A stretch of DNA of 40,804 nt from a virus: UHGV virus genome UHGV-0164601. One strand, 5' to 3'. Positions within the stretch are counted from its first letter, which is position 1, and every line of letters begins with the position of its first letter. The translations under genes and the position numbers were made by a program. A model generated the notes under the pieces. It did no database searches. It had not been told where the DNA came from and was given only the letters and a program-made list of their open reading frames with translations. Shown one piece after another: positions 3,738 to 37,311 of the stretch.

Positions 3738-4555
3738 ATGTACATATCCTGTTTGCGTGCCCACTCAGGGCGTTTAATGATTTCCACACCGCCCCATTCA
3801 TCATTGATGCGGCATTCGTGATAGGTATTCAGATCCCGGCGGAACAGAGCGTGCCCGGCATCGACATCCTGCGCATCCAGCTCGAACACGCGTACCGGAT
3901 ACCGACCACAATCAATGCTTTCGCTCACGGCAAGAAAGAAAAAACCATGCGGCTGACCAGTAACCCTCATTGCGCCTTCGCGGTACATTGCGTCCTGCAC
4001 GTGGTAGCGGAATTCCTCGATGTGGCGTGCAAAACGGTCCATATCTGCAACCTTTTTCACGTCGACGATCACGTTGTGCTCGTTCAGCCATTTGTCTGGA
4101 CGAATTCGGCACAACTCCCCCGTCTCTTCATCGTTCCAGTACATTGATGCTTCGCAGTAACCAGGTGCTTCCAGCATCCAGCGTGCCGCCGGGTGAGCCA
4201 TTGCGCTATCACGCATCAGCTCCAGTTTCCGCCACTGCTCGGCATCAAGTACCGTAATCCCCATATCCGCCACATCACGAAGAAATTCCTCTTCGTCAGC
4301 TTTACCTTGTTTCGTCCGACGATCGAATTTCGGTGAAACAATGAAGCGTTTGTCGAACTCTCCAGGCTCCAGAAGCAGACAGTGCAATGCGGTTCCCATA
4401 TCCAGTGCAGACTTTTTCTCTTCGTCTTCTGGTGCTGCCTGAACCCATTTAAGAAGCGCCGGATTCTTGGCAACCATGTCCAGTTGCGACTTACTCACGC
4501 CGTCACCGGCGTGGTAGTCTTCGTTGCTGATGTCGAAATAAATTCCCGGTTTCAT
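3734..4555 (-). CDS. Phage exonuclease (RecE-like PD-(D/E)XK nuclease), partner of RecT
   Basis: 273-aa ORF immediately upstream of and coupled to recT; D..VDVKK-type nuclease motif region; GAGGGA Shine-Dalgarno before ATG 4555. Confidence 0.65.
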   Translation of the reverse strand: MKPGIYFDISNEDYHAGDGVSKSQLDMVAKNPALLKWVQAAPEDEEKKSALDMGTALHCLLLEPGEFDKRFIVSPKFDRRTKQGKADEEEFLRDVADMGITVLDAEQWRKLELMRDSAMAHPAARWMLEAPGYCEASMYWNDEETGELCRIRPDKWLNEHNVIVDVKKVADMDRFARHIEEFRYHVQDAMYREGAMRVTGQPHGFFFLAVSESIDCGRYPVRVFELDAQDVDAGHALFRRDLNTYHECRINDEWGGVEIIKRPEWARKQDMYI

Positions 4556-5025: not shown

Positions 5026-5040
5026 TTACCGTTGAGGTAA
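5026..5040. promoter_or_regulatory. Operator-like palindrome TTACC-GTTGA-GGTAA overlapping the predicted start of the leftward early transcript
   Basis: Perfect 5-bp inverted half-sites with 5-bp spacer; same motif recurs at more than 10 operon starts. Confidence 0.55.
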
Positions 5041-5159: not shown

Positions 5160-5744
5160 TTATTGTTTGTTTTTTTCGTTCTGGTTGATGACAAATTCAA
5201 TGTAACTTTCGATCTTTGCTTTCTCGGTTTCGGGTAACAATGCGTAGCGCGAGCGATCATAGTTGATGGTCGCAGGGTCGTGCGGGTGAATCAGTAATTC
5301 ATAGCCGTGACGCCCGAATGCGGATGCAACATTCTCCAGGGTGGAAATGGAAACGCTGACCTCATTGTTTAACAGGCGGCTGATTGTCACCTGGGCGACG
5401 CCGGATGCGCGGTGAAGTTTTCCCTGTGTTGAAAGGTCGCGGCTTTCGCTCATCCAGCGTTCCAGGTTGTGAGCCGCCAGCTGGCCAATGTCGCTTGGGC
5501 CGACAGGCTGAAAACCTTCCTGAGAAAGCGAGCGATCGATATCAAGCCAGTTACGGGGTTTATTGGCGGCAGCTTCAATTTTTCGCGCAACCTGATCGCC
5601 GATAACCTTCTTACCAAGAGCCCAGCGGTTTACCAGATTTGCCTGAGTTCCAAGTTTTTCAGCCATCCGCGTCTGAACACCATTGAATTCACGGTCGATC
5701 AAGTCGTTGAGATTTTGCCTGCGGACGTCCTGGATACTTTTCAT
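5160..5744 (-). CDS. Prophage repressor, double helix-turn-helix, no LexA-like S24 peptidase domain
   Basis: N-terminal XRE-type HTH (QTRMAEKLGTQANLVNRWALGKKVIGDQVARKIE) and a second HTH-like segment (VAQVTISRLLNNEVSVSISTLENVASAFG); divergent from a Cro-like gene; no Ser-Lys autocleavage module seen. Confidence 0.65.
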   Translation of the reverse strand: MKSIQDVRRQNLNDLIDREFNGVQTRMAEKLGTQANLVNRWALGKKVIGDQVARKIEAAANKPRNWLDIDRSLSQEGFQPVGPSDIGQLAAHNLERWMSESRDLSTQGKLHRASGVAQVTISRLLNNEVSVSISTLENVASAFGRHGYELLIHPHDPATINYDRSRYALLPETEKAKIESYIEFVINQNEKNKQ

Positions 5745-14523: not shown

Positions 14524-14600
14524 TGGCGTGGCATGCAGGATTCGAACCTGCGACCAACCGCTTAGAAGGCGGTTGCTCTGTCCAACTGAGCTAATGCCAC
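14524..14600 (-). tRNA. tRNA-Arg, anticodon UCU (decodes AGA), phage-internal
   Basis: 77-nt cloverleaf read from the reverse complement: acceptor GTGGCAT/ATGCCAC, D-arm GCTC/GAGC, anticodon stem ACCGC/GCGGT with loop CTTCTAA, T-arm GCAGG-TTCGAAT-CCTGC, discriminator G, encoded CCA. Confidence 0.85.
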
Positions 14601-14922: not shown

Positions 14923-14937
14923 TTACCTGAAAGGTAA
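14923..14937. promoter_or_regulatory. Operator-like palindrome TTACC-TGAAA-GGTAA upstream of the portal operon
   Basis: Perfect copy; 44 bp upstream of ATGTGGTT (14982-14989). Confidence 0.5.
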
Positions 14938-23663: not shown

Positions 23664-24241
23664 TGTGTAACCCAGCCATCGCTTTGGTTGCCGTCACAGT
23701 GGCATCCACAGCAGCGTCAATGTACAGCCAGAGCAAGCAGGCAAAATACCAGTCAGCCGTAGCTGATCGGAATGCTGAAATTGCTGAAGCTCAGGCACAG
23801 GATTCAATCAATCGTGGGAATATTGAAGCGGATCAGCGTCGTCGTGAAATGCGTCAACGCTCAGGCACTGCGGCGGCCACTATGGGGGCTACCGGTGCGG
23901 AATTAAGTAGCGGAACAGCTCTTGACGTTTTTGCGGATAATGCTCAGTTCGGCACTCTTGATGCGTTAACGACAGTGAATAATGCTCAGCGTGAGGCATA
24001 TGGGTATCAGGTTCAGGGAATGAATGCTCAGGCACAGGGGGCTGCTGCTCAGTCGGCTGCTAAATCATCGATGACCAGCACTTTGTTAACGGCACCACTA
24101 AAAGCATACGGTGCGTACCAGATGTTTGGTGGGACGTGGAGTCCGTTCTCTAAAGGAAGTACATCTAGTGGTGGGACGCCAATGTTATCTAACTCAGGTT
24201 TTATGAATTCTGACTCCAGATTCAAAATAGGAGGTTACTGA
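23663..24241 (+). CDS. Internal virion protein A-like (T7 gp14 analogue)
   Basis: 192 aa beginning MCNPAIALVAVTVASTAAS with an Ala/Gln-rich body, like the N-terminus of T7 gp14; first of three consecutive core genes. Confidence 0.6.
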   Translation: MCNPAIALVAVTVASTAASMYSQSKQAKYQSAVADRNAEIAEAQAQDSINRGNIEADQRRREMRQRSGTAAATMGATGAELSSGTALDVFADNAQFGTLDALTTVNNAQREAYGYQVQGMNAQAQGAAAQSAAKSSMTSTLLTAPLKAYGAYQMFGGTWSPFSKGSTSSGGTPMLSNSGFMNSDSRFKIGGY

Positions 24242-26988
24242 TGCCTGTTGTTCCTACTACATCCGGACGCCAGGTGCAAAGTCGTGGTGTGCAAACCGGT
24301 GGTTTTCAGACCTTCGATGTTCCTCAAGCAGGTCAGGTGCTGGCGAATGTCGCAGATCAGTATGCGGTGGCATATGGTGAAGCTAGGCAGAAAGCGAATG
24401 TTGCTATGGCCCAGGAGGCGTTACTGCAATTTAACCAATTTGCAGATGACCAGATTAACAACCCTGAAAATGGGCTGATTTCTAAACAGGGTAAAAACGC
24501 TCTTGGTCAGAGTGACGCTGTTATGAAAAATATGCAGGAAAGGGCTCAGGCATTATTAGGCTCAATTCCTGAAAGTGAGGAAAGGAATAAATTATCCTTT
24601 CAACTCCAGCAGTCTATGCAGTCTTATTACAATCAGGCACGTCGATATGAAGTTGGGCAGTTTCAGCAATTCCAAGATCAAACGTATTTGTCAGGAAATG
24701 CATTGGCTGTCACTCAGTCTGCGGGGCTATATAGCGATAACCAAGCATTTGTCGATTTAGCCAAGCAGCGATTTGAATCTATTGATCAATACGCTGATGC
24801 GCATGGGCTTCCTGATGAGTGGCGTGTTCAGCAGAAAACTCAGCTCAAGGAACAAATGGGGCAGCAAGCATGGATAGGAAATATCGCTCAAAAATACAAC
24901 GAGTTTCTTCAGGTTAATGGAGAGCCAGGGGATCTTGATGGTGTGAGTCGTGCAATATCACATGGTAATTCATTGGATGCTCGTGGTTTACGTAATAATA
25001 ACCCTGGCAATATTGAAGCGAGCAAATCTAACCCGTGGGAAGGTCAGATCGGTAGCGATGGACGTTTTGCAACGTTTGCTACCCCTGAGCATGGAATCCG
25101 CGCGTTGGGTAAAAATATGTTGTCTTACCAGCGTCAAGGCTATGACACCGTTAGCGAGATTGTTAATCGCTATGCTCCGGCTAGTGATGGTAATAATACT
25201 GATGCTTATATTAGGGCATTGTGTAGTGAGCTTGGTGTTGGGGAGAATGATCAGCTTGATATCTCTAACCCAAAGACACTAGCTGCTTTATGTGCTGGGA
25301 TTATTAAACACGAAAATGGCAGTATGCCTTATAGCACCGAACAGCTTGAAACTGGTATCTCGGCAGCCCTTGGTCTAACTAACCTTGATTCACCTAAGCG
25401 TTATACGGGCAATGCGGCATTTGACGCTATGAGCCCTCAAATGCAAATACAGGCATTGAGGCAGGCTAATGAGCTGAGAAATCAGTACCGCCAGCAGTAT
25501 GCGGACCAGCTTAGCACCGTAGTTAAAGATGCATATTCAGCCCTTGATGAAGGATTGAAACCTGAGAAGTTACCTTCTGAGGACGATTTTATCCGGGCCA
25601 ATGGTCCGCGCATTGGCGCTATGAAGTGGAAGGATATGCAGGCGCAGATACAATATGGAGGTGTCATTGGTGCCGCTAAAGACCTCACTCCAGAAGGACG
25701 ACAAGACATTCTTGAACGTTTACGTCCACAGGATCCAAACGCTCTTGGATTTGCAGCTAACCAGCAACGCTGGGAGAAAATGCAGGCCAAATTTAAAGAG
25801 ATGGATAGGGAGTGGGAGATTCAGCAGGGAAGAAACAGGTTCGTGTCTTCAATGCAAAATAACTTCCCGCTGGACCCTAACGACAAAAACAATCAGGCAG
25901 CGGTAGACCGTTATTTCGCGCAGGATATCGCGCCTTCGTTTTCCATATCTGATCCGCAGAGCATCAATACACTGGTCACCGTCACAACTAAAAGCGGCAT
26001 GATACCAACTCAGGTTAAAACAATGCTTAACAGTGGAGCAACATCAAGAGATCCTGCGCTGGTTGTCCCGATGGCAAAATTCTACGGTCAGTTATTCGAT
26101 AATAATCCGGCGGCAGCGGCAACACTTGATAAAAGTACGATGGCATTTTACGGCAAGGTTTACGATTATTCCCGCGCTGGCGTGCCGGAGGATAAGGCTG
26201 TTGATATGGCTTACAGCCAGGTGTTCCAACAGGATGACCGAATGAAACAGATGCTTTCCACTGCCATGCGAGACAAAAAATATGTCGCGGCGAGGGCAAC
26301 TGCTGCACAAAATAACGCCAGCAGTCTGACTTCCTTTGGTTCGTGGTCTCCGGATATTACCGATCCAGGAAAATCAAATGCGGCCTATCAGCGAGATTAC
26401 CAGACAATTTACGATGCTAACTTTGTACAGACAGGTGGCGATGCAGAACAGGCTGAGAAAATGACCAATGCCATGATCAGAACCACCTGGGGAGTTTCTA
26501 CAGTTAATGGCAAAGCAGAGGTTATGAAGTATGCACCTGAGGCATTGTACGGAGTAAATAATGGTGCTGGTAACTGGATACAGGGGCAGTGGGAGCAGGA
26601 AAAACGCGAGCTTAAATCAAAATCCTTTGGCGGTCCTCGCAGTGATACGGACTTAATACTTGTTTCTGATGGCCTTACGGCAAGGGATAGGAGTTATGCT
26701 GTTATGGTTTTACAGCCTGACGCAAACGGAGCGATAGAACCGAGAAATTATATTGGAGAAAATGGTCTCCCTGTTCGTTTCAAGCCGGATCAGCTGACAT
26801 CTCCAATGTACAGGCAAACCATTCAGTTCCAGCAACAGCGTGTTGATGAGGCTAGAGTGCGGAGAGAAGGCAATCCGCTGCCGCAGTTCAGCAATAAAGA
26901 TGGATATACTCCTCCAGATCTGACCAAACCATTCGGTTATGGTTCAGCCAATTACCTTCCGAGCAATATATACGCAGGGGGCAAATAA
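24241..26988 (+). CDS. Internal virion (core/ejection) protein B-like, 915 aa
   Basis: Second large core gene, translationally coupled; contains a conserved-looking central module NNPGNIEASKSNPWEGQIGSDGRFATFATPEHGIRALGKNML of unknown function. Confidence 0.5.
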   Translation: MPVVPTTSGRQVQSRGVQTGGFQTFDVPQAGQVLANVADQYAVAYGEARQKANVAMAQEALLQFNQFADDQINNPENGLISKQGKNALGQSDAVMKNMQERAQALLGSIPESEERNKLSFQLQQSMQSYYNQARRYEVGQFQQFQDQTYLSGNALAVTQSAGLYSDNQAFVDLAKQRFESIDQYADAHGLPDEWRVQQKTQLKEQMGQQAWIGNIAQKYNEFLQVNGEPGDLDGVSRAISHGNSLDARGLRNNNPGNIEASKSNPWEGQIGSDGRFATFATPEHGIRALGKNMLSYQRQGYDTVSEIVNRYAPASDGNNTDAYIRALCSELGVGENDQLDISNPKTLAALCAGIIKHENGSMPYSTEQLETGISAALGLTNLDSPKRYTGNAAFDAMSPQMQIQALRQANELRNQYRQQYADQLSTVVKDAYSALDEGLKPEKLPSEDDFIRANGPRIGAMKWKDMQAQIQYGGVIGAAKDLTPEGRQDILERLRPQDPNALGFAANQQRWEKMQAKFKEMDREWEIQQGRNRFVSSMQNNFPLDPNDKNNQAAVDRYFAQDIAPSFSISDPQSINTLVTVTTKSGMIPTQVKTMLNSGATSRDPALVVPMAKFYGQLFDNNPAAAATLDKSTMAFYGKVYDYSRAGVPEDKAVDMAYSQVFQQDDRMKQMLSTAMRDKKYVAARATAAQNNASSLTSFGSWSPDITDPGKSNAAYQRDYQTIYDANFVQTGGDAEQAEKMTNAMIRTTWGVSTVNGKAEVMKYAPEALYGVNNGAGNWIQGQWEQEKRELKSKSFGGPRSDTDLILVSDGLTARDRSYAVMVLQPDANGAIEPRNYIGENGLPVRFKPDQLTSPMYRQTIQFQQQRVDEARVRREGNPLPQFSNKDGYTPPDLTKPFGYGSANYLPSNIYAGGK

Positions 26989-29900
26989 TGCCGATATATG
27001 AACAGGATCCTAAAGAGTTGCTTGGCGAGGATATTCAGCAAATAGCAGCACCTGATGACAGTAATTTCTATATGGAAACACCTTCTTTGCTTTCTGCTGT
27101 GAACCCATTTACCAGTGATCAACGCGTTCAAAGGTCTAGACAAGCAGCATTTCGTATAGATAACACGCTGGGTAGCTTTATTGCCAGTGCTCCTTTCAGT
27201 CAGTTTGACAGGGTTGAAGGATATAACCCATTTGATAACGATGCAGCAGATATTAAAGGCTATGAAGATTTTGCAGATTCGTTTATCAACTCCGGTTCGC
27301 ATGAAGAAACAATGGCAATTAAACATCGAATCGATAAGCAAAGAACAGATAGAGAATATCTATCTGAAATGGGTGGTGCTGGTACTATTTCAAGCTTAGC
27401 AATGGGAATGATAGACCCGGTTAATGTGGCTGCAATGTTCATCCCTGTAGGGGCGGTAGCGCGTGGAGGAAGTATTGCTGAGACGGCAGGGCGTTTTGCC
27501 CTGGCGAATGCTGCTGGTGGGGGAGTATCAGAAGCCGCATTACAGGCCACTCAGGAAGCTCGCTCACCGATGGAGAGCGTATCGAACGTTGTTGTTGATG
27601 CTCTCGTTGGTGGGATCCTTGGTGCTGGTGCACAGCTACTTGCTGGACCTAGCGCGCGCGAGGCAGTGGTTAACTCAGTAGGTAATCATTTGCGAGGTAT
27701 GGATTCTCCTCAAAGCATTGGTGCAGCTCAGGTTTTCAATACCACACTCGATCAGGAACAGCTCGCTGGACTTGGACTTGCTAACAAAACGTTGAGTGTC
27801 ACTCCTGCTGGCCGCTTGGCGCAATCACCATCTCTTGTCTCCCGTCAGATTAACCAGCAGCTTGCCGAAAATAACTATTTCTTCGCCAAAAATGATGAGG
27901 GGTTGGCTACGTTTACGGCAGTCGAGACTAAGATTAAGCAATACGACGCCATGCTTTATAAGCAGATGGAAGCTACTCGTGATGCTTACCAGCAGTACAG
28001 CAAATCTGTCAGCGCCCGCGGCGTGAAGAGGATGAACTTTATTGATTTCAATGAAGCTGTTGGCATGGCTATGCGCCGTGGTGATCAGAGTGATATTCCT
28101 GAGGTTTCACAAGCAGCCGCCAGAATCCGCCCCATTTTTGAGACCACAAAAGCCCGTATGCAGGAATTGGGGATCCTTCCTGAGGATATCGATGTCGTGA
28201 CGGCGAAGAGTTATCTTCCCCGCATTTATAAGTTCGATAAGATACTTTCCGACCGCACTGAATTCAGAGGGCGAATTGCCAACTGGATACAAGGGATTAG
28301 TGCCAAAGGTGCTGACAAAGCAGGTCAGCGAATTGAAAAGATAAATTCATTGCTAAAAACTGCAGAGGAATCAGCACCGCGCGCTGATGCTCTCGCTAGT
28401 GAAATCGCTGAAGCGGAGAAATGGTCTGGTAAAAAAATTCTACTCATGGAAGAACTGGATAAACGAAATAAGCTTATATCTCAGGAGACTGACACACAGG
28501 CGCGTCTTACAAGAATAGAAAAAGAGTTGGCCGAGACTTCATCAGAAAAACTTCAGGCAAGAATGATGAAAGAAAGCTCTGACCTTAAAACACGCCTTGA
28601 TGATATAGCGCAGGCAAAGAGTGAGCTTCCTGTCTATCAGCGCCATATGGAGTTGCTGGATAATCCACGGAAATATCGTTCTGAGCTTCGCCGACTGCAA
28701 AAACGGGCAAATTCAACCACAAGGCTGAATGCAAGCCGCGAGCGAGCACTGAAGCAGATGGAGCCTCTATCCCGAGAGGAAGCAGAGGACGCTGCTGACG
28801 AGATCGTGAATAAAATAATAGGCGCACCTTCCGGGCTTGTACCAGCCGATATTATCCCAGAGAGACTCGTTGGTCGGGCTGGTTTCACTAAAAGCAGAAC
28901 GCTGCTTATTCCTGATGAGCGTATAGAAGATTTTCTTGAATCAGATGTTAACTACATCATGGAAAGTTATCTCCGGCAGGTGGCACCAGAAATTGAGCTG
29001 ACTGCGCAGTTTGGCCGTAAAGATATGGGGGAGCAAATCCGTCAGGTTAGTGAGGAATATACCCGGCTAATAAAAGAGGCTAAAACACCTAAACGACGTG
29101 CAGTTCTTGAGAAGCAACGGGAGGCTGATATTAGGGATATTACGGCTATGCGTGATCGACTGCTTGGTACTTACGGTGCACCTCAAGATCCACGCAGTTT
29201 CTTTGTTCGTGCCGGGCGAGTTGCTAGGAATATTAACTTCCTCCGTTTGCTTGGTGGAATGACTGTCTCCGCTGCAACTGATCTGATGCGACCGATGATG
29301 CAGCATGGCCTGAGAAAATCTCTCGGACCAATGGTAAGCATGCTTAAAAATATGGACTCAGTGAAAATTGCAACCAGGGATTTGCGAGAAATGGCAGTTG
29401 GGCTTGATTATGTCCTGTCTACGCGTACAAAGGCTATAGCGGATCTTACTGACCCCTATAGCCGGAGAAGCGCCGCTGAGCGAGGTCTGAACTGGATGAC
29501 GCAGAAATTCGGTAACTGGACGCTGATGAATCAGTGGAACAGCGCACTTAAATCATGGTCTGGGATGATAGTGCAGTCGAGGATACTTGACGCGGCTCGC
29601 CAAGTTTCTGCTGGTGGCACGCTCTCCAAAAGTGAAATGCGGAAGATGGCACAGGTCGGCATCAATGAAGATGTTCTGCGCCGAATCGGGGAGCAATTCG
29701 GGAAGCACGGAGAGGATATGGACGGGCTGTTAACCGGGCATAGTCATCTGTGGGATGACCGTTTCGCTAGAGAGATTTTCCAGTCTGCAGTGCTGAAAGA
29801 TGTAGACTCAGTGATTGTAACGCCTGGCGTAGGTGATACACCGCTGTTTTTTAGTAAAGAAGGCTGGAAGATGATCACGCAGTTCAAAACGTTTATCTTC

Positions 29901-30377
29901 GCACAGCATAACAGGGTGCTGGTATCTGGTATCCAGCAGGGCGATGCTGCATTCTATCTTGGTGCGCTTGGCACGATTGCGCTTGGCTCAATGGTCTATA
30001 TGATGAAACAGAAGTTAAGCGGTCGCGATATCGACTACAGCTGGAATAACCTTGTGAAAGAGGGGATCGACCGGGGCGGAATGCTTGGCTGGCTCTCTGA
30101 GCCGCTGAATACCGTTGAGAACATAAGCGGCGGTAGGTTTGGTCTTGGCGCGATGTTTGGTGCGCCTCCGGTATCAAGGTTTCAGAGTCGTAATGCTATT
30201 GGTGCTTTACTTGGTCCTACCTTTGATCTTGGCGGTGATGCCGCGACGGTTGCAAATGGTGTACTTAACGGAGAATTTGACAGCCAGCAAACCCACGCTG
30301 TCCGTAAAATGCTACCTTTTCAGAATCTGTGGGCGATATCACCATTACTAAATAAAGTTGAAGAGCAGATGAAATAG
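26988..30377 (+). CDS. Internal virion (core/ejection) protein D-like, 1129 aa
   Basis: Largest ORF of the structural module, immediately after the 915-aa core gene, as T7 gp16 follows gp15. Confidence 0.5.
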   Translation: MPIYEQDPKELLGEDIQQIAAPDDSNFYMETPSLLSAVNPFTSDQRVQRSRQAAFRIDNTLGSFIASAPFSQFDRVEGYNPFDNDAADIKGYEDFADSFINSGSHEETMAIKHRIDKQRTDREYLSEMGGAGTISSLAMGMIDPVNVAAMFIPVGAVARGGSIAETAGRFALANAAGGGVSEAALQATQEARSPMESVSNVVVDALVGGILGAGAQLLAGPSAREAVVNSVGNHLRGMDSPQSIGAAQVFNTTLDQEQLAGLGLANKTLSVTPAGRLAQSPSLVSRQINQQLAENNYFFAKNDEGLATFTAVETKIKQYDAMLYKQMEATRDAYQQYSKSVSARGVKRMNFIDFNEAVGMAMRRGDQSDIPEVSQAAARIRPIFETTKARMQELGILPEDIDVVTAKSYLPRIYKFDKILSDRTEFRGRIANWIQGISAKGADKAGQRIEKINSLLKTAEESAPRADALASEIAEAEKWSGKKILLMEELDKRNKLISQETDTQARLTRIEKELAETSSEKLQARMMKESSDLKTRLDDIAQAKSELPVYQRHMELLDNPRKYRSELRRLQKRANSTTRLNASRERALKQMEPLSREEAEDAADEIVNKIIGAPSGLVPADIIPERLVGRAGFTKSRTLLIPDERIEDFLESDVNYIMESYLRQVAPEIELTAQFGRKDMGEQIRQVSEEYTRLIKEAKTPKRRAVLEKQREADIRDITAMRDRLLGTYGAPQDPRSFFVRAGRVARNINFLRLLGGMTVSAATDLMRPMMQHGLRKSLGPMVSMLKNMDSVKIATRDLREMAVGLDYVLSTRTKAIADLTDPYSRRSAAERGLNWMTQKFGNWTLMNQWNSALKSWSGMIVQSRILDAARQVSAGGTLSKSEMRKMAQVGINEDVLRRIGEQFGKHGEDMDGLLTGHSHLWDDRFAREIFQSAVLKDVDSVIVTPGVGDTPLFFSKEGWKMITQFKTFIFAQHNRVLVSGIQQGDAAFYLGALGTIALGSMVYMMKQKLSGRDIDYSWNNLVKEGIDRGGMLGWLSEPLNTVENISGGRFGLGAMFGAPPVSRFQSRNAIGALLGPTFDLGGDAATVANGVLNGEFDSQQTHAVRKMLPFQNLWAISPLLNKVEEQMK

Positions 30378-30378
30378 G

Positions 30379-31230
30379 ATGAAAAAAATAAATTTGTTTT
30401 TTGGCATAGTGCTTTCAATAGTCTCTGTAAATCCTACAGCTGCCAGTTCATTGCAATGCAATAAGGATAACTTTGATGCATGCAAAACGTGCGAACAATT
30501 ATCAAAGGCTATCGACTTAAAAGAACCTAATCGTGGCGATTACTATAGAGGGGCTTTATGGAATGGGCTTTACGCCTCTTATGTAATTAATTGCCCTGTG
30601 GTTGCAGAGAAGTTACTGAGCCATGGTGCTATACCATCATATGGCGGATATATGGGGTCTATGGGGGCGGTTCTGACAGGAAAATGGCCTCATAACAATG
30701 AATCAATAAATCTTTCATGGGCAGATTTGCTTATAAAACATGGATTTGATGTTAATAGGCATACGGGGAATTATAAATCAGCTACTGAAGTATGGGCTAT
30801 AGATAAAAAACAGATTGAATATAAGTCAGTTTTTGACAAGTTAATTCAATCCAGCGAAGTAAAACCACTCGATCCTTCAAGAAATTTAGAATGGTGTGCG
30901 TCTGAAGGGTATCGCTCAGTTGTCGTTTATTCCCTTAACTCATGTATAGAAAATGCTATAAAACGTTTGGATGACGGTGTTTCTTCAGCGTCTGATATTT
31001 CATCAGCAGCCGTAAATTCCTGTACTAGCGATGTAGAAAATTTCAATAAGCATTTGGCATGCAAAGCAGCTGTTAAAGAAAACTCTGATAAAGAGAGAAG
31101 CAACGTTTACCAGTTATTAACCAGTGATAGTCAAATGAATAAAAATGTTATTGATATGCTGAAGGAAAGAAATATTGAAACGGTTCTTGAATTTAGAGCT
31201 GAAAATCGATCAGCGAAAACTGCACAGTGA
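30379..31230 (+). CDS. Secreted protein of unknown function (moron), possible ankyrin-like repeats
   Basis: Signal-peptide-like N-terminus MKKINLFFGIVLSIVSVNPTAASS; visibly AT-rich codon usage; LL.HGA / LLIKHGFDVNRHT ankyrin-like segments; own terminator. Confidence 0.55.
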   Translation: MKKINLFFGIVLSIVSVNPTAASSLQCNKDNFDACKTCEQLSKAIDLKEPNRGDYYRGALWNGLYASYVINCPVVAEKLLSHGAIPSYGGYMGSMGAVLTGKWPHNNESINLSWADLLIKHGFDVNRHTGNYKSATEVWAIDKKQIEYKSVFDKLIQSSEVKPLDPSRNLEWCASEGYRSVVVYSLNSCIENAIKRLDDGVSSASDISSAAVNSCTSDVENFNKHLACKAAVKENSDKERSNVYQLLTSDSQMNKNVIDMLKERNIETVLEFRAENRSAKTAQ

Positions 31231-31261: not shown

Positions 31262-31300
31262 AACGAATGCCACCGCCGCCTGGGTGGGAATCCGCAGACA

Positions 31301-31323
31301 CAAAAAAGCCCGCGCCGCGGGCT
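31301..31323 (-). terminator. Rho-independent terminator of the minus-strand two-gene cassette
   Basis: GCCCGC-GCC-GCGGGC hairpin containing the stop codon, followed on the minus strand by TTTTTTGT. Confidence 0.5.
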
Positions 31324-31762
31324 ATTCTTCTTCATCATAAAAAAGCGGATTGTCGTTTCCATCTGATGAAAGGAAAGGTATGTGTTCTCTTGAAAATCCA
31401 ACAACGACAATTTCATTATCATTTTTTGCATAATGAATGCATTCATTAGAATGCATTCCGCCAGGGTTGAAATTTAAGTTAATGGTATAATTCTTAAATG
31501 TGTTTGGATACCATGTTGGCCCACAATGATAATGCCAATAATTCTCTTGCTCATAATTGTCTGAGCCGGGAATTTTATCATGGTTATCATCAACCCACGA
31601 TGGCTTGTTTTTTCCAACAAGCGCCCTTCCATTGGCAACATCTTCTAAAAACCTTTGTATGATTTTTATTTCATCGTCAGTAAGGAAAGGTCCGTCTACA
31701 GCGAAAGGGGTGTTGCTTTCCCCATTTAGAAAACTATTAGATATTCTAATGTTAAACTTCAA
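31322..31762 (-). CDS. Hypothetical protein (146 aa), distal gene of a two-gene moron cassette
   Basis: TTG start at 31762 with AGGAG 6 nt upstream; AT-rich; conserved-looking YWHYHCGP segment; acidic C-terminus FYDEEE; no family recognised. Confidence 0.5.
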   Translation of the reverse strand: MKFNIRISNSFLNGESNTPFAVDGPFLTDDEIKIIQRFLEDVANGRALVGKNKPSWVDDNHDKIPGSDNYEQENYWHYHCGPTWYPNTFKNYTINLNFNPGGMHSNECIHYAKNDNEIVVVGFSREHIPFLSSDGNDNPLFYDEEE

Positions 31763-31782
31763 GACAAACTCCTAATGTGCTT

Positions 31783-31950
31783 CTATTTGGAGCGAAATGC
31801 CGCCTTGAAGTCGCTGAAAGATGTTCCTGTCTGGTAAACCATATCCTTGTCGCGCTCTTTGCTTGCGCGGCCAAGCATAACTTTTCCAATGACATCCCAG
31901 CATTGCTTGGCTTGTTCATTGTGCTGAGTACGATTTTTCAACGCTGTCAT
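31783..31950 (-). CDS. Hypothetical small protein (55 aa), proximal gene of the two-gene cassette
   Basis: Not in the ORF track (<60 aa); ATG 31950 preceded by AGGAGG (31957-31962); MTALKNRTQHNEQAKQCWDVIGKVMLGRASKERDKDMVYQTGTSFSDFKAAFRSK. Confidence 0.45.
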   Translation of the reverse strand: MTALKNRTQHNEQAKQCWDVIGKVMLGRASKERDKDMVYQTGTSFSDFKAAFRSK

Positions 31951-31962
31951 ATCGCGCCTCCT

Positions 31963-31977
31963 TTACCTTTAAGGTAA
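31963..31977. promoter_or_regulatory. Operator-like palindrome TTACC-TTTAA-GGTAA between the predicted -10 and the ribosome-binding site of the cassette
   Basis: Perfect copy immediately upstream of the AGGAGG Shine-Dalgarno. Confidence 0.5.
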
Positions 31978-32005
31978 TAGTACGCTATTCACCCACAGTC
32001 TGCAA
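31977..32005 (-). promoter_or_regulatory. Candidate sigma70 promoter of the two-gene cassette
   Basis: Minus strand -35 TTGCAG (32005..32000), 17-bp spacer, -10 TACTAT (31982..31977). Confidence 0.4.
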
Positions 32006-32050
32006 TCTGTACAGAATTATTTAAAGGCACATCCCTGTGCCGCCGTTCTG

Positions 32051-32737: not shown

Positions 32738-32890
32738 AGTGATCACCTTTGTAGTTAGGTTAATCACCACTACCGACGCCAATCGGTTGGTGGTGAACTG
32801 TGCAGGGTTGGCGTAACCGGCTACAAAGGACCCGGCGCACCTTTCGGTGCCCCCACACAGCCCACCATAGAATAGGTGCGCTTTACACAT

Positions 32891-32909
32891 AAAAAAACCG
32901 CTTATGCGG
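32891..32909 (-). terminator. Weak terminator/attenuator-like hairpin in the antirepressor leader
   Basis: CCGC-TTAT-GCGG hairpin followed on the minus strand by TTTTTTT. Confidence 0.3.
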
Positions 32910-32924
32910 CATATGTGCCTCTGT

Positions 32925-32976
32925 AGTAATCCGGGACGCCAATCCCGGCACTGGATTTTGCCAGTGCCCGATTACT
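32925..32976. other. Structured element (nested inverted repeats) upstream of the antirepressor; candidate leader RNA or small RNA
   Basis: AGTAATCCGGG...CCCGATTACT outer stem enclosing hairpins CCGGGA-CGCCAA-TCCCGG and CACTGG-ATTTTG-CCAGTG. Confidence 0.3.
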
Positions 32977-33003: not shown

Positions 33004-33018
33004 TTACCGTAAAGGTAA
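33004..33018. promoter_or_regulatory. Operator-like palindrome TTACC-GTAAA-GGTAA
   Basis: Perfect copy in the divergent region between the antirepressor and the membrane zinc-ribbon gene. Confidence 0.5.
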
Positions 33019-33096: not shown

Positions 33097-33111
33097 TTAC
33101 CTTTAAGGTAA
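33097..33111. promoter_or_regulatory. Operator-like palindrome TTACC-TTTAA-GGTAA
   Basis: Perfect copy 21 bp upstream of ATG 33132; identical sequence to the site at 31963-31977. Confidence 0.5.
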
Positions 33112-33131: not shown

Positions 33132-33860
33132 ATGGAAGTTTTCTGGATAGTTGTTGGTGTGGTTGCGGTGATTATTTACGTTATCAACCAGAACAAGACT
33201 AAGATCTCTGATCGTACGGTCGTTAATCATAACAAAACGATAAAGACCGAAGATGGGGAGATAACGATTAATCGTACACAGGTGATAGAACACACCTCTA
33301 CTCAGTTTCAAAAAACTGGAGGTAATGCGCCTAATATTTCCGCACCTCCTGCTTATGATAGTGCGGTAATCCAGACATATTATAAACAGCAGGAGTTAGC
33401 AAAAGAGAGGCAACTGATTCAGCCAAAGCCGTTTACAGCTGAGATTCCACCTGGAGTGTCAACGCGTCCGGCATATCATGGAAGATTCCCTGGTGATGAC
33501 ATATCGTCTCAGTCATCTAAAAAAGCACCTCAGGCAATATCAGAGCCAGCAAGAATACCTTCTGTATCGCTGCCAAAAGAAGAATCAGCTAACAGAGTTT
33601 CAAGTGGTAGCAAGCAGTGCTTGCGATGCAGAATAAACCTTCCATATGAAAAATTCAGGAAATCGTCAAAAAATCCAGATGGATTGACTAAATGGTGTGC
33701 AAGGTGTCTCGATGGCCCAAAGAATACACGCCATATGAAGTGGTGCCCAATTTGTAATGTCCGCAGAAAACGAACCAGCTTTTACCCTAATAATCAAAAT
33801 GCGGACGGCTTAATGGCATGGTGCAAAACGTGCTGGGATGAGCACAAAGCGAAACGATAG
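33132..33860 (+). CDS. Membrane-anchored protein with duplicated CxxC-x22-WCxxC zinc-ribbon (rubredoxin-like) modules
   Basis: N-terminal hydrophobic helix FWIVVGVVAVIIYVI, Pro/Ser/Gln-rich linker, then CLRC...DGLTKWCARC and CPIC...DGLMAWCKTC repeats; GAGGA before ATG 33132. Confidence 0.6.
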   Translation: MEVFWIVVGVVAVIIYVINQNKTKISDRTVVNHNKTIKTEDGEITINRTQVIEHTSTQFQKTGGNAPNISAPPAYDSAVIQTYYKQQELAKERQLIQPKPFTAEIPPGVSTRPAYHGRFPGDDISSQSSKKAPQAISEPARIPSVSLPKEESANRVSSGSKQCLRCRINLPYEKFRKSSKNPDGLTKWCARCLDGPKNTRHMKWCPICNVRRKRTSFYPNNQNADGLMAWCKTCWDEHKAKR

Positions 33861-33884
33861 GCCGCTCTTGCGGCCTTTAAATTT
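33860..33884 (+). terminator. Rho-independent terminator after the zinc-ribbon gene
   Basis: GGCCGC-TCTT-GCGGCC hairpin followed by TTTAAATTT. Confidence 0.55.
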
Positions 33885-34140
33885 ACCGGGTTTGTTTTCG
33901 TAATTGTTCGGCACAATAGTCGAGATGTGTTTGCAGATCCCGCATAGACATCTGTGAGCTGGTGACGTAGTTAATCAGTGCAGTCAGTTCGGCAAGTGGG
34001 CCATCGACATTAAATCCATCCTTATCGAGATCCCGGAGTAATTTCATCAAGTGCGATCCCTCCACCAGTGACCTGACGCCTCCCGGCGTGTGAATCCTTT
34101 CGGTAAATCCGTCTTCCAGTGGATAGTGATACTGCTGCAT
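33883..34140 (-). CDS. Small antirepressor-like protein (85 aa), stand-alone paralog of the antirepressor C-terminal domain, with a LexA box in its promoter
   Basis: TPGGVRSLVEGSHLMKLLRDLDKDGFNVDGPLAELTALINYV...MRDLQTHLDY aligns with the C-terminus of the 32051-32737 protein (SPSGVLGLTENSLLMNLLNQLQDDGHDVSGAAAELTTMFCYI...LRDIQTHAEY); start at ATG 34140 with GGAG upstream. Confidence 0.55.
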   Translation of the reverse strand: MQQYHYPLEDGFTERIHTPGGVRSLVEGSHLMKLLRDLDKDGFNVDGPLAELTALINYVTSSQMSMRDLQTHLDYCAEQLRKQTR

Positions 34141-34159
34141 CTTATCTTCTCCATGCAAT

Positions 34160-34179
34160 AACTGTATATTTATACAGTA
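34160..34179. promoter_or_regulatory. LexA (SOS) box
   Basis: AACTGTATATTTATACAGTA: CTGT-N8-ACAG with an AT-only spacer, 18 of 20 matches to the E. coli consensus TACTGTATATATATACAGTA; 20 bp upstream of ATG 34140. Confidence 0.65.
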
Positions 34180-34216
34180 GCAAATAATTTGTTTGCTATC
34201 CAGCACGTTTTGCAAA

Positions 34217-34231
34217 TTACCCGAAAGGTAA
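34217..34231. promoter_or_regulatory. Operator-like palindrome TTACC-CGAAA-GGTAA
   Basis: Perfect copy between the SOS-box gene and the tailspike gene; 32 bp upstream of ATGTGGTT (34264-34271). Confidence 0.5.
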
Positions 34232-34335
34232 TATCTATTCATATTCACAGTATTTCTATCCATATGTGGTTTTTCAGGTAATAGAATAACCGGATATGCG
34301 GCGCAACGGGTGCTGCGACTATCTGGAGATTTAAC

Positions 34336-37311
34336 ATGACGGTCTCAACCGAAGTTGACCACAACGAATACACAGGTAACGGCGTTACGACATCATTTCC
34401 GTATACCTTTAGGGTTTTCAAGGAATCTGATCTGGCAGTACAGGTGGTTGACCTTGACGAAAATATCGCTGTGCTGGCTCTTGATACTGATTACACTGTC
34501 ACTGGGGCTGGTGGATATAATGGCGGTAATGTAATTCTGTCGAAGGCGTTAGCTAACGGTTATCAGATTTCTATATCACGAGAGCTACCGGTTACGCAGG
34601 AAACTGATCTGCGAAATCAGGGAAAGTTTTTCGCTGAGGTGCATGAAGACGCGTTAGATAAGCTGACGATGCTGATACAGCAAGTCCGCAGTTGGTTTAG
34701 CCTGGCGCTGCGCAAACCATCATTTGTGGCAAACTATTACGATGCTTTGAATAATTACATCCGCAATTTGCGCGATCCTTCCAAGCCTCAAGATGCAGCT
34801 ACAAAGAATTATGTTGATAATATTGTTAATGTGAATATTAACAGGACATTACGGGTTCCAGATAATTTTATTGAACCACTTCCTCCAGTTCATTTACTGG
34901 AAGAAACTGTCATTGGTATCGTCAATGGTAAACCTATAGGTGTACCTGTGCCTTCTGGCAGTGCCGCAGATGTTCTTCTGCAATTATCTAGCGCAGGAGA
35001 AGGAAAAGGTGATGCATTAATTGGTGTAAGGCAGCCATTTGCCGGGGCTGTAACTATAACTCAGCATGAAAACAATGCTCTTTTCTTAAATGTAAAACAA
35101 TTCGGAGCAATTGGGGATGGGAAATATCATCCATTATCTGAGAGGTTTTCTTCAATTTCTGAAGCAAAATCCTTATATCCTTTTGTTGACTCATTATCTC
35201 AGTCAATAGACTGGGCCGCGTGGCAAGCTGCCATTAACACAGGAAAGGTTATTTATGGTACTGATAATGCGTATGTAATAACGGATACGTTAACACCTGT
35301 TTCTGGTGGTGGGATAATTGGTCTTGGTGTGGGCAAATGGGTCTCTGGATATACTGCAACATTTGCTCCTGATATTACCACAGGGACCACATTCCTGATG
35401 TACGGGGTAGGAAATAAAAAATATACTGTAGATTGTGTTTCTAATATGGATGTTAGTGGTGGTGTGGTTTCTAATCCATCTTCCGAAGACCCGTATACAA
35501 CAACGGCACCTGCGTCATCATATGATTTATTGGATTTTACTAACGGTGATGCTAATGGGACTACAAGAGCCACGCTTAAACCATTCTCTGCCGCAATATT
35601 GATGCCTGAGACAGGATGTGTTCGCCTTGAGAACTTTCGTGTTGTTCCATATTTCAATGGGCTGGATGGTTATAAAGACATTGCAAATACCGGTCTTGGC
35701 GATGAGTGGGATGTAGGTATTTGGTCACGTGCGTCTTTTGGCAATGAATACCGCAATTTGCAGGTGGTTGGATACTGGCGCAAGACGGCACTTTTAAAAA
35801 CGAACATTCCTGTATCTGGCACGCTGGCCGCTCAGGGCGAGGATGAAAACTATTATCACTGTAGATTCCAGGGATTCAAGGGTATTTCGATCCGCGCCCA
35901 TGATGTATTCCGAATTACAGCGGTAACGTCCAGCACTATCGAAATCCCATGGTCAGCAAGCCACACCTTCGAAACGTCCGGGGTTTTAAGATCTGGAGGC
36001 AGGAATTTCACTTATTCAGGATTATCCGTATCCGGTGATAAGTTAGTATTTACTGGAGTGTCTAACGCTTCTGAGGCAACAGTAGGTTCTACTATACGGC
36101 GAAATGACATAGATAACTTTGGTATGGCGGGAACGCAATTTTTCGATTGCTACATTACCAGCCTGTATCACCACACACATCTGCTTGCCACATCGCAATA
36201 CCTGTCTCAGCCATTCAGCCGGCCATCAGAGTGTATGGAGGTTTCAGGGGAACCAGTTCGCGGTGTACAGGTACATGCGGGAACCATTCAGGGATGGGAT
36301 GATGTTCTTATTCATCTGCATGACTGTGGAAATATGAACTTTTACAGTACATATTTCGAAAGCCAGCAAGCATATGTAACTATAAATGGTGGTAATGCTA
36401 TTGGTTATGGAGCACGTATGATAGCTTCCCGGCAATCAACAAGCTCATTACCATATGCAGCAGGGAATACTCGAGTGCTTAGAATGGTCGGGTGCTCTGA
36501 AGGCAATGGCGTTGACTGGGGTCCTGTATTTAACAACTATACAGGAGGAAGATATAATTCTGGAGACGGTGTATTTAACCCCCGCGATGCATTTATAGAC
36601 CATAAATCTCTTCCTGAGCAGTCAGGAGGTGAGTCAAGACTCGTATCACAAAAAGGAAATGCCAGAGTAGTATGTGGTGTTGGTAAAACTGTACTGCTTG
36701 GACCAACGTCAGGAGATTGTAATTTACAGAGCAATACTGGAAGTTTAAATATTAGAAGTGGGATAAGAGTAAGAATCGGTCACGCTGATGGAACAGACTG
36801 GTGGTTGGCAGATGCTAATAAAATAGCTCCTGTTGATGATAATGTTAAAGCTATTGGACAGCCATCAAACAGATGCTCTGTTATCTATGCAGGAACCGGG
36901 TCAATCAATACGTCAGATGAAACTCTTAAAACAAGATATGATATTCTTAATGCAGAGCGTAATGCCGCTATTGAAATAAAGTCAGTCATCTATAAATTTA
37001 AATTTAATGACTCAATTAATCACAAAGGAATTGAGTCGTCCAGGTATCATTTTGGCGTTGGCGCTCAAACCGTAGGGGATATTCTTAGAAAGCATGGTTT
37101 AAACCCTGAGCAATATGCTTTTTGGTGTTACGATGAATGGCCTGACGTATGGGATGAAGAGGTGATAACTGAAGAGAGCACAGATCCTGATACAGGTGAG
37201 AAAATTTATTCTCAATATAAAACAGGAGATATGATTCTTGTAAAAAAAGCAGGAGGACGCTACGGAATTCGTTATGACGAATTAGCCATGTTTATATTAA
37301 TGTCAATGTAA
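34336..37311 (+). CDS. Tailspike / tail fibre with central beta-helix (depolymerase-like) domain and C-terminal intramolecular chaperone (peptidase S74-like) domain
   Basis: N-terminal virion-attachment-like region (NEYTGNGVTTSFPYTF); pectate-lyase-type motif LNVKQFGAIGDGKYHP; C-terminal SDETLKTRYDILNAERNAAIEIKSV... resembling self-cleaving chaperone domains; GGAG before ATG 34336. Confidence 0.7.
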   Translation: MTVSTEVDHNEYTGNGVTTSFPYTFRVFKESDLAVQVVDLDENIAVLALDTDYTVTGAGGYNGGNVILSKALANGYQISISRELPVTQETDLRNQGKFFAEVHEDALDKLTMLIQQVRSWFSLALRKPSFVANYYDALNNYIRNLRDPSKPQDAATKNYVDNIVNVNINRTLRVPDNFIEPLPPVHLLEETVIGIVNGKPIGVPVPSGSAADVLLQLSSAGEGKGDALIGVRQPFAGAVTITQHENNALFLNVKQFGAIGDGKYHPLSERFSSISEAKSLYPFVDSLSQSIDWAAWQAAINTGKVIYGTDNAYVITDTLTPVSGGGIIGLGVGKWVSGYTATFAPDITTGTTFLMYGVGNKKYTVDCVSNMDVSGGVVSNPSSEDPYTTTAPASSYDLLDFTNGDANGTTRATLKPFSAAILMPETGCVRLENFRVVPYFNGLDGYKDIANTGLGDEWDVGIWSRASFGNEYRNLQVVGYWRKTALLKTNIPVSGTLAAQGEDENYYHCRFQGFKGISIRAHDVFRITAVTSSTIEIPWSASHTFETSGVLRSGGRNFTYSGLSVSGDKLVFTGVSNASEATVGSTIRRNDIDNFGMAGTQFFDCYITSLYHHTHLLATSQYLSQPFSRPSECMEVSGEPVRGVQVHAGTIQGWDDVLIHLHDCGNMNFYSTYFESQQAYVTINGGNAIGYGARMIASRQSTSSLPYAAGNTRVLRMVGCSEGNGVDWGPVFNNYTGGRYNSGDGVFNPRDAFIDHKSLPEQSGGESRLVSQKGNARVVCGVGKTVLLGPTSGDCNLQSNTGSLNIRSGIRVRIGHADGTDWWLADANKIAPVDDNVKAIGQPSNRCSVIYAGTGSINTSDETLKTRYDILNAERNAAIEIKSVIYKFKFNDSINHKGIESSRYHFGVGAQTVGDILRKHGLNPEQYAFWCYDEWPDVWDEEVITEESTDPDTGEKIYSQYKTGDMILVKKAGGRYGIRYDELAMFILMSM

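Follow-up and report, generated by a model that had tools for sequence, protein, structure and literature searches.

A moron-borne gene pair of a Uetakevirus prophage of Escherichia coli as a probable toxin–antitoxin-like module, with a RelE-fold protein and a phage-wide operator

Toxins of the RelE/ParE superfamily, such as those of RelBE, YefM-YoeB, DinJ-YafQ and HigBA, reside on mobile elements and are encoded after a small upstream partner gene and a short gap, with catalytic residues E46, R65, H83 and Y84 in YoeB and K52, K54, R61, R81 and Y87 in RelE. Phage morons, in the definition of Juhala and Hendrix, are extra transcription units with their own promoter and terminator, placed between genes that are adjacent in a related phage. 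In the PaaR2-PaaA2-ParE2 module of prophage CP-933P in E. coli O157:H7, the antitoxin lacks a DNA-binding domain, and control comes from a CI-like phage repressor (PMC8630535). We describe here a cassette of two genes (31322-31950, minus strand) in the UHGV virus genome UHGV-0164601, an epsilon15/phiV10-like (Uetakevirus) E. coli prophage whose whole analysed stretch of 40,804 nucleotides (nt) we call the window. The reading that we favour, as probable though far from assured, is that of a type II toxin–antitoxin (TA)-like module carried on a moron, in which a RelE-fold RNase toxin is paired with a small helical neutraliser lacking a DNA-binding domain, and whose transcription is under the operator of the prophage repressor. 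By analogy, PaaR2-PaaA2-ParE2 is the nearest analogue in design, since it also has a prophage-embedded toxin of RelE/ParE fold, a small helical antitoxin that does not bind DNA, and control by a phage-type repressor, the last being probable for the cassette. However, the PaaR2 regulator is the first gene of its operon, whereas the cassette has no regulator of its own and uses the operator of the whole prophage; moreover, the toxin there is a ParE, while the large cassette protein looks RNase-type, and the two systems share no sequence similarity.

The cassette region, which has matches in phages phiv142-3 and HEMP4 and in numerous E. coli chromosomes, lies between the internal-virion-protein genes (24241-30377) on one side and the tailspike gene (34336-37311) on the other. 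A three-way alignment of the window, phiv142-3 and phiV10, together with the phiV10 annotation, delimits the cassette-specific DNA to 31272-32050, an insert of about 780 bp that separates the ant stop codon from the shared virion-operon terminator and brings along a 5' region of its own, both genes and an additional terminator; phiV10 has no cassette, and there the shared terminator comes almost directly after the end of ant. The first gene (31783-31950, minus strand) starts with ATG, 6 nt after AAGGAGG, and encodes a basic helical protein of 55 residues (phrog_8607), the putative antitoxin or partner. After a gap of 20 nt, and on the same strand, the second gene (31322-31762, minus strand) starts with TTG, has its own Shine-Dalgarno sequence (AGGAG at 31769-31773, 6 nt upstream), and encodes the 146-residue RelE/YoeB-fold protein (phrog_5954) that is the putative RNase toxin. 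An intrinsic terminator on the minus strand, AGCCCGCGGCGCGGGCT followed by TTTTTT (31301-31323, stem 31307-31323), overlaps the TAG stop codon. An initial annotation, made from the DNA alone, had placed both genes, the TTG start with its AGGAG, and the terminator exactly there, and all of this is confirmed: RefSeq/PGAP calls exactly these two open reading frames (ORFs) in identical prophages (WP_000125783.1 and WP_000671199.1), and all homologues of the large protein share the same M-K start.

The same annotation took both genes to be AT-rich, horizontally acquired cargo. The acquisition is borne out by phiV10, while the base composition holds for the large gene (35.6% GC) and fails for the small one (47.0% against a window mean of 48.1%). 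With a candidate promoter and a terminator of its own, its absence from the site in phiV10, and a large gene of deviant composition (35.6% vs. 48% GC), this inserted extra transcription unit has the features of a moron. No terminator was found between the ant gene and the cassette, and read-through from ant is therefore also possible. Both genes are conserved, as a functional pair should be by the reasoning of the initial annotation, and their sequences indicate strong purifying selection, with ratios of non-synonymous to synonymous substitution rates (dN/dS) against the Enterobacter, Raoultella-like and Kluyvera copies of 0.12-0.17 (small gene) and 0.05-0.07 (large gene). The large gene is intact in the alignment with phiv142-3 as well. 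In that phage, and in some E. coli prophages too, an extra gene for a 53-residue lipoprotein-like product (Orf11, locus L001 5026-5187) stands between the virion-operon terminator and the cassette terminator, and it accounts for the length difference of about 190 bp in phiv142-3.

The two genes travel together, as had to be checked for any proposal of a two-gene module. Both occur in 77 of 5,426 complete E. coli genomes, always as a pair (77/77) and never as solo copies, and the large gene has a partner ORF immediately upstream of it at each of 18 genome loci (18/18) and at nine others, so that adjacent, co-oriented small genes move as a unit, as in type II TA systems. This upstream partner is conserved across Enterobacterales, Pasteurellaceae, Neisseriaceae and plasmids. 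Among the carriers are Uetakeviruses and a Kluyvera prophage that encodes a P22-type antirepressor and Arc and shares the operator of the window; the pair is also found close to the tail-fibre genes of a lambdoid prophage, in a P22-like remnant of K. aerogenes, and in P2/Mu-like Haemophilus prophages, where it lies between the tape-measure gene and the baseplate gene V. Chromosomal sites were found after accA in Erwinia and, in Kingella and Neisseria (loci L019, 5016-8713, and L020), between nuoK and nuoL inside the NADH dehydrogenase operon. In addition, 37 plasmid records carry the pair, most of them of 2.7-4.6 kb (<5 kb), and in the three small plasmids inspected (2.7-3.0 kb) the only genes are a Rep of DnaD_N/HTH_36 type and the pair. 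Among the plasmids of 2.7-3 kb is NZ_OU659205.1. Being the sole cargo of such small replicons is what is expected of an addiction or protection module, and the pair, as the only accessory cargo of many 3-kb plasmids, probably explains their persistence. Frameshifted alleles (P0005, P0021, P0034 and P0042-46) were considered as a natural test of an antitoxin lost beside an intact toxin and were set aside as uninformative, because the contigs checked (L023 and L024) have indels in coding and non-coding DNA alike and come from error-ridden assemblies.

The large protein belongs to a family that every annotation resource has missed. A word-indexed search gave 34 clusters, and an exhaustive profile search raised this to at least 116 representatives at 50% identity, hosted by mobile elements of E. 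coli, Salmonella, Klebsiella, Haemophilus, the Neisseria group and Aeromonas. An AlphaFold model built from 29 sequences (predicted local distance difference test, pLDDT, 90.5; predicted template modelling score, pTM, 0.86) has the compact α/β arrangement of the RelE/ParE fold, namely an N-terminal strand, two helices and then an antiparallel sheet of three to four strands: β1 at residues 4-7, helices at 9-13 and 29-43, β2 at 48-54, β3 at 75-79, β4 at 108-113 and β5 at 117-124. This core is of RelE/YoeB/YafQ type and is interrupted by three insertions of about 60 residues in total, which, together with the lack of any sequence-profile membership, set the protein apart from the RelE/ParE superfamily.

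Conservation was read from 97 relatives with 22-54% identity to the window protein. H77, H79 and H127 are invariant, and G50, N52, K53, Y78 and Y111 are at least 94% conserved; in the model, K51/N52/K53/S55 on β2, H77/H79 on β3, H110/Y111 on β4 and H127 just after β5 form one conserved cluster. The YWHYHCGP segment, which had looked conserved from a single sequence, turns out to be the core motif of the family, with W-H-Y-H invariant or nearly so, and the acidic tail noticed beside it is indeed present and varies across the family. Three motifs run parallel to those of E. coli YoeB, the sequence of which was verified: GKNKPS here to GKGKPE there, YWHYHC to FWSRRI, and S-R-E-H127 to C-R-Y-H83. 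In sequence, H127 follows β5 at the same spacing as H83 in YoeB. Lys and His are conserved on β2, on β3 and in the C-terminal part, at positions that appear to correspond to the catalytic ones of RelE/ParE-superfamily toxins; with YoeB in particular the protein shares the GK-x-KP and C-terminal His motifs, while its His triad (H77, H79 and H127) stands in place of the Glu/Arg/His/Tyr set of YoeB and the Lys/Arg/Tyr set of RelE. From the conserved residues at what look like the catalytic positions of RelE, YoeB and YafQ, and from the YoeB motif parallels, we infer a divergent RNase of this fold, and the placement gives a biochemical hypothesis that can be tested on the three histidines. The heptapeptide GKNKPSW (residues 50-56) also occurs in ribosomal protein L13, which produced a false positive of the genome scan in a Pyrinomonadaceae contig (L022) and is probably a coincidence.

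The small protein is basic (isoelectric point, pI, 9.8), and its AlphaFold model, of modest confidence (pLDDT 71, pTM 0.35) and too uncertain for an informative fold search, has a helix at residues 2-34, a loop and a second helix at 45-53. The ORF directly upstream of the large gene encodes 57-64 residues in Serratia, Proteus, K. aerogenes, Erwinia and plasmids, and 160-211 residues in Haemophilus, Actinobacillus, Kingella and Neisseria, where the E. coli protein aligns over its full length with the C-terminal ~55 residues. The shared domain consists of a long helix, the motif G-T-S-x-D/E-Φ and a short helix. When a small-protein profile built exclusively from Enterobacterales was run against 1,248 six-frame ORFs of 22 loci, all of the top ten matches (10/10) were the ORF immediately upstream of the large gene, which makes the partner a conserved domain preceded by a variable N-terminus, as is typical of antitoxins. 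A search for natural fusions of partner and toxin found none. The long partners of Pasteurellaceae and Neisseriaceae (L005-L020, e.g., L012 5438-5995) begin with a conserved motif, NLSLNPIF, which is followed by a short hydrophobic stretch resembling a signal peptide.

The candidate sigma-70 promoter of the cassette (31977-32005, minus strand) consists of the −35 hexamer TTGCAG (32005-32000), a 17-nt spacer and the −10 hexamer TACTAT (31982-31977). It had been proposed in the initial annotation and stands in part: it is weak, with 7 of 12 consensus positions, and a consensus scan did not report it, but comparison with relatives supports it, since the register is kept. Kluyvera has the same −35 and spacing with a better −10 (TTGCAG-17-TAATAT), the promoter of Enterobacter and of the Raoultella-like locus, TTGACG-17-CAAAAT, is unrelated but occupies the same register, and the −10 abuts the palindrome in all compared loci (window, Kluyvera, Enterobacter and Raoultella-like). 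The palindrome itself, predicted as an operator between the −10 and the ribosome-binding site, proved to be far more than a local feature. The operator ATTACCTTAAAGGTAAA (31962-31978; core palindrome TACCTTTAAGGTA, 31964-31976) shares two bases with the end of the −10 and reaches into the beginning of the Shine-Dalgarno sequence, and its pattern TACC-N5-GGTA is found at 12 sites in the window against 0.58 expected (5027, 5089, 5801, 8132, 8194, 11716, 14924, 31964, 33005, 33098, 34218 and 37843), most of them extending to the 17-bp ATTACC-N5-GGTAAT and many of them lying directly after a −10-like hexamer. The copies at 5027, 5089 and 5801 flank the gene of the 194-residue prophage repressor (5160-5744, minus strand; matched to transcriptional regulator and repressor PHROGs), the copy at 14924 precedes virion genes, that at 33005 lies on the promoter of isrK, C4 and ant, and that at 33098 stands ahead of a gene for a 242-residue protein. 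Two pairs of copies, 5027/5089 and 8132/8194, are exactly 62 bp apart.

A single repressor appears to serve early, ant, accessory and possibly late promoters. Four further genera have kept the operator ahead of the small gene; it is present in phiV10, which has no cassette, and it is absent from the non-phage cassette copy of Erwinia. Autoregulation by a palindrome intrinsic to the cassette was for this reason rejected for the E. coli group, with phiV10 having the operator without the cassette and Erwinia the cassette without the operator. Because the motif is phage-wide, flanks the repressor gene, occurs in phiV10 and is missing from the Erwinia copy, the cassette promoter most probably carries the phage's own operator, to which the 194-residue repressor would bind in trans; the suggestion that the cassette is under the prophage's own regulator is thereby upheld. 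In a more distant copy of the cassette in K. aerogenes (L030, about 3760-3805), a good promoter, TTGCTA-17-TATACT, leads into a perfect palindrome of another sequence, ATCACCAGTGGTGAT, which lies just ahead of the Shine-Dalgarno sequence; promoter, palindrome and ribosome-binding site thus keep their arrangement across lineages, while the palindrome itself changes.

An operator for the phage repressor implies a cassette that is shut off in the lysogen and comes on at induction, and in this the cassette departs from morons in general, whose expression is usually thought to take place while the prophage is repressed. The RNA-seq data for a lysogen of phiv142-3 in serum fit a repressible unit: the cassette locus rises 2^4.12-fold (17-fold), as do the early genes orf40 and orf41, whereas the adjacent ant gene rises only 2^1.31-fold (PMC7724020, Table S1), a difference that argues for a separate, repressible cassette promoter. 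In the favoured TA-like reading, the 146-residue protein would be an endoribonuclease that arrests growth, probably through mRNA cutting, and the 55-residue protein would neutralise it by direct binding through the conserved domain. With the −10 hexamer fused to the phage-wide 17-bp operator, the prophage repressor would probably keep the cassette low in the lysogen, and the cassette would fire once repression is lifted; a selfish element of two genes, it would serve the stability or protection of its carrier, be it a prophage or a small plasmid. The initial annotation had offered a wider choice of toxin–antitoxin, abortive-infection, superinfection-exclusion or anti-defence modules, which the RelE/YoeB-type fold and the mobile pair narrow down to the TA type; as to defence, no known family was recovered, neither protein matching the PADLOC anti-phage defence models at E≤1. 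If this reading is right, the cassette adds a second example, after PaaR2-PaaA2-ParE2, of a TA-like module under prophage-repressor control.

Several observations weigh against this reading, and they begin with the sequence searches. Profile and structure searches, proposed in the initial annotation as a check, give half an answer: in Foldseek against the PDB, RelE/YoeB-type proteins rank first, but not significantly (E at least 0.24), while sequence profiles come back empty. The window large protein has no Pfam match at E≤1, its 97 relatives scanned one by one have no Pfam toxin family at E≤0.01, and hhalign of the family profile against the single RelE, YoeB and YafQ sequences is not significant. 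Pfam, NCBIfam and the PDB sequences have no match for either cassette protein, a PDB profile search with the large one giving none below E=0.39, and Foldseek against the BFVD viral structures gave nothing usable for the large protein, which by its sequence is therefore outside every known toxin family. Nor are two of the catalytic residues of YoeB conserved, Glu46 being Ser55 here and Arg65 having no equivalent that we could see.

The charges are a second difficulty. The large protein of E. coli is very acidic (pI 4.7, net charge −12) and the partner basic, the reverse of the canonical pattern, in which ribosome-binding RelE-type toxins are basic and their antitoxins acidic. Across the family the median pI is 6.8, against 7.9-9.7 for YoeB, YafQ and RelE, and the basic surface that would bind the ribosomal A site was not found; this acidity argues against a classical ribosome-dependent toxin. 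As for the partner, neither profiles nor the model give it a DNA-binding domain, be it ribbon-helix-helix (RHH), helix-turn-helix (HTH), AbrB or Phd, and, the operator being phage-wide, the autoregulation by the antitoxin that characterises type II TA systems is missing. A signal-peptide-like N-terminus in the long partners is, moreover, hard to reconcile with a cytoplasmic antitoxin. Regulation raises its own objections, given that the operator belongs to the phage and not to the module, that repression in the lysogen is odd for an addiction, defence or lysogen-protecting module, and that orf9, the gene of the 55-residue protein, is not listed as co-induced with the large gene in serum (PMC7724020).

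A further point concerns a published knockout. The 'Orf10' of phiv142-3 (QGF19616.1, 52 residues; L001 5432-5590, corresponding to window 31474-31641, minus strand) is an out-of-frame ORF nested in the 146-residue gene, and the lambda-Red arms used for Δorf10 map to codons 24-44 and 97-117 of that gene, so that the knockout removed its codons 45-96, including GKNKPSW and YWHYHCG. The mutant grows normally in LB, and its sole reported phenotype consists of a reduced serum resistance (about 60% of wild-type survival), kps transcripts about 2-fold lower, and poorer colonisation, including lower loads in blood and heart, with no change in killing or stability reported (PMC7724020). Viability after deletion of the large gene fits the loss of a toxin. 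The virulence phenotype, in turn, would suit a RelE-fold enzyme acting as a regulatory or lysogenic-conversion factor, which trims or binds host RNAs and in this way alters capsule expression and serum survival, with the small protein as its cofactor or chaperone; the acidity, atypical of ribosome-dependent toxins, and the missing toxin-family match speak for it too. We consider this explanation unlikely, if worth keeping in mind. A conversion factor specific to its host would be a surprise on tiny plasmids of six genera that have no other cargo, and likewise at the nuoK-nuoL junction of Kingella; a partner kept so strictly upstream in distant taxa is, besides, the mark of a toxin and the protein that neutralises it. 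In addition, the published complementation apparently used the out-of-frame 'orf10', and the serum phenotype is itself insecure for that reason. The role of phiv142-3 orf10 in the serum resistance and colonisation of avian pathogenic E. coli consequently needs to be reinterpreted and retested with the correct ORF.

Regulation by the phage could also be built into the function. In this alternative, the family would consist of His-triad enzymes of RelE fold, often acidic and ribosome-independent, with a modular partner domain, and the Uetakevirus copy would act as a switch coupled to induction. In enterobacterial phages and plasmids the partner would be free and basic, and in Pasteurellaceae and Neisseriaceae it would be attached to an N-terminal region that is secreted or anchored in the membrane; the cassette would fire only on derepression and would change the fate of the induced cells, as well as host phenotypes such as serum survival, unlike a classical addiction module. 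Taken jointly, these statements make a speculative proposal, to which we give a small chance of being right.

A third possibility takes the operator as its starting point, and we think it doubtful enough to be a minor candidate. The cassette would serve the lytic cycle or counter-defence, being repressed in the lysogen and expressed at induction or infection, when its product would degrade the RNA of the host or of a competitor, or neutralise, as a decoy, a toxin or defence system of the host. In its favour are the promoter, where the phage-wide operator comes straight after the −10 as at the sites that flank the repressor, the 17-fold rise in serum in company with the early genes orf40 and orf41, and the location in an ant/immI-like region with the isrK and C4 RNAs; small acidic phage proteins are often inhibitors. 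However, the module is also found without the phage operator at sites that are not in phages, namely behind accA in Erwinia, in the nuoK-nuoL interval of Kingella and on small plasmids; the invariant His/Lys/Tyr cluster points to an enzyme and not to a decoy; and phiV10 and other Uetakeviruses thrive without the cassette.

Returning to the TA-like reading, its polarity might be reversed as in hicAB, with the basic 55-residue protein as the toxin and the large acidic protein as the antitoxin. The gene order and sizes do resemble hicA-hicB, where a basic protein of about 55-60 residues comes first and an acidic one of about 145 follows, and the charges would fit a basic toxin and an acidic antitoxin. 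This we regard as very improbable, because the deletion of codons 45-96 of the large gene is viable and normal in LB, when the loss of an antitoxin should be deleterious, because the large protein has a toxin fold with an enzyme-like invariant cluster and the small one has no compact fold, and because there is no match to a HicA or HicB profile and no such fold here. That the large protein is a ParE-like gyrase poison and not an RNase is likewise scarcely credible, since what favours it is that the closest regulatory analogue, PaaA2-ParE2, is a ParE system, while the invariant His/Lys/Tyr cluster lies on the face of the β-sheet where RNases have their active site, and ParE proteins are not known to have an active site of this kind.

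The cassette shares its variable block with further genes. The Bro-N/Ant antirepressor gene (32051-32707/32890, minus strand) is preceded by an isrK-like Hfq-binding small RNA (32891-32967, minus strand; 76.8 bits) and a C4 antisense RNA (32786-32872, minus strand; 79.5 bits), both located between an operator-bearing promoter (33047-32974) and the Bro-N/Ant gene, and this amounts to a P1/Gifsy-type immI layout in a Uetakevirus (32786-32967). On the other side of the cassette, at the end of the virion operon, an AT-rich gene (30379-31230, plus strand; 37% GC) encodes a 283-residue protein of unknown function with a signal-peptide-like N-terminus (phrog_6118); its position is variable, being taken by a 46-residue membrane protein in phiV10 and by the 118-residue Orf12 in phiv142-3, and we therefore see in it a second moron slot. 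Elsewhere in the prophage, between the terminase and portal genes, a tRNA-Arg(TCT) gene (14524-14600, minus strand) is followed by about 300 nt of non-coding DNA and the operator copy at 14924.

Two more genes lie between the ant region and the tailspike gene. The first (33132-33860, plus strand) encodes the 242-residue protein mentioned above, with an N-terminal hydrophobic segment and two C-terminal Cys-rich repeats that match endonuclease VII, Lar-like and HNH PHROGs; it has a perfect 17-bp operator 21 nt upstream of its start and is absent from phiV10 and phiv142-3. The second is a small gene (33883-34263, minus strand; 85 residues in RefSeq, with a 126-residue ORF possible), homologous to the Ant C-terminal domain (phrog_450), which is conserved in phiV10 (p24) and epsilon15 (gp19) and bears the operator copy at 34218.

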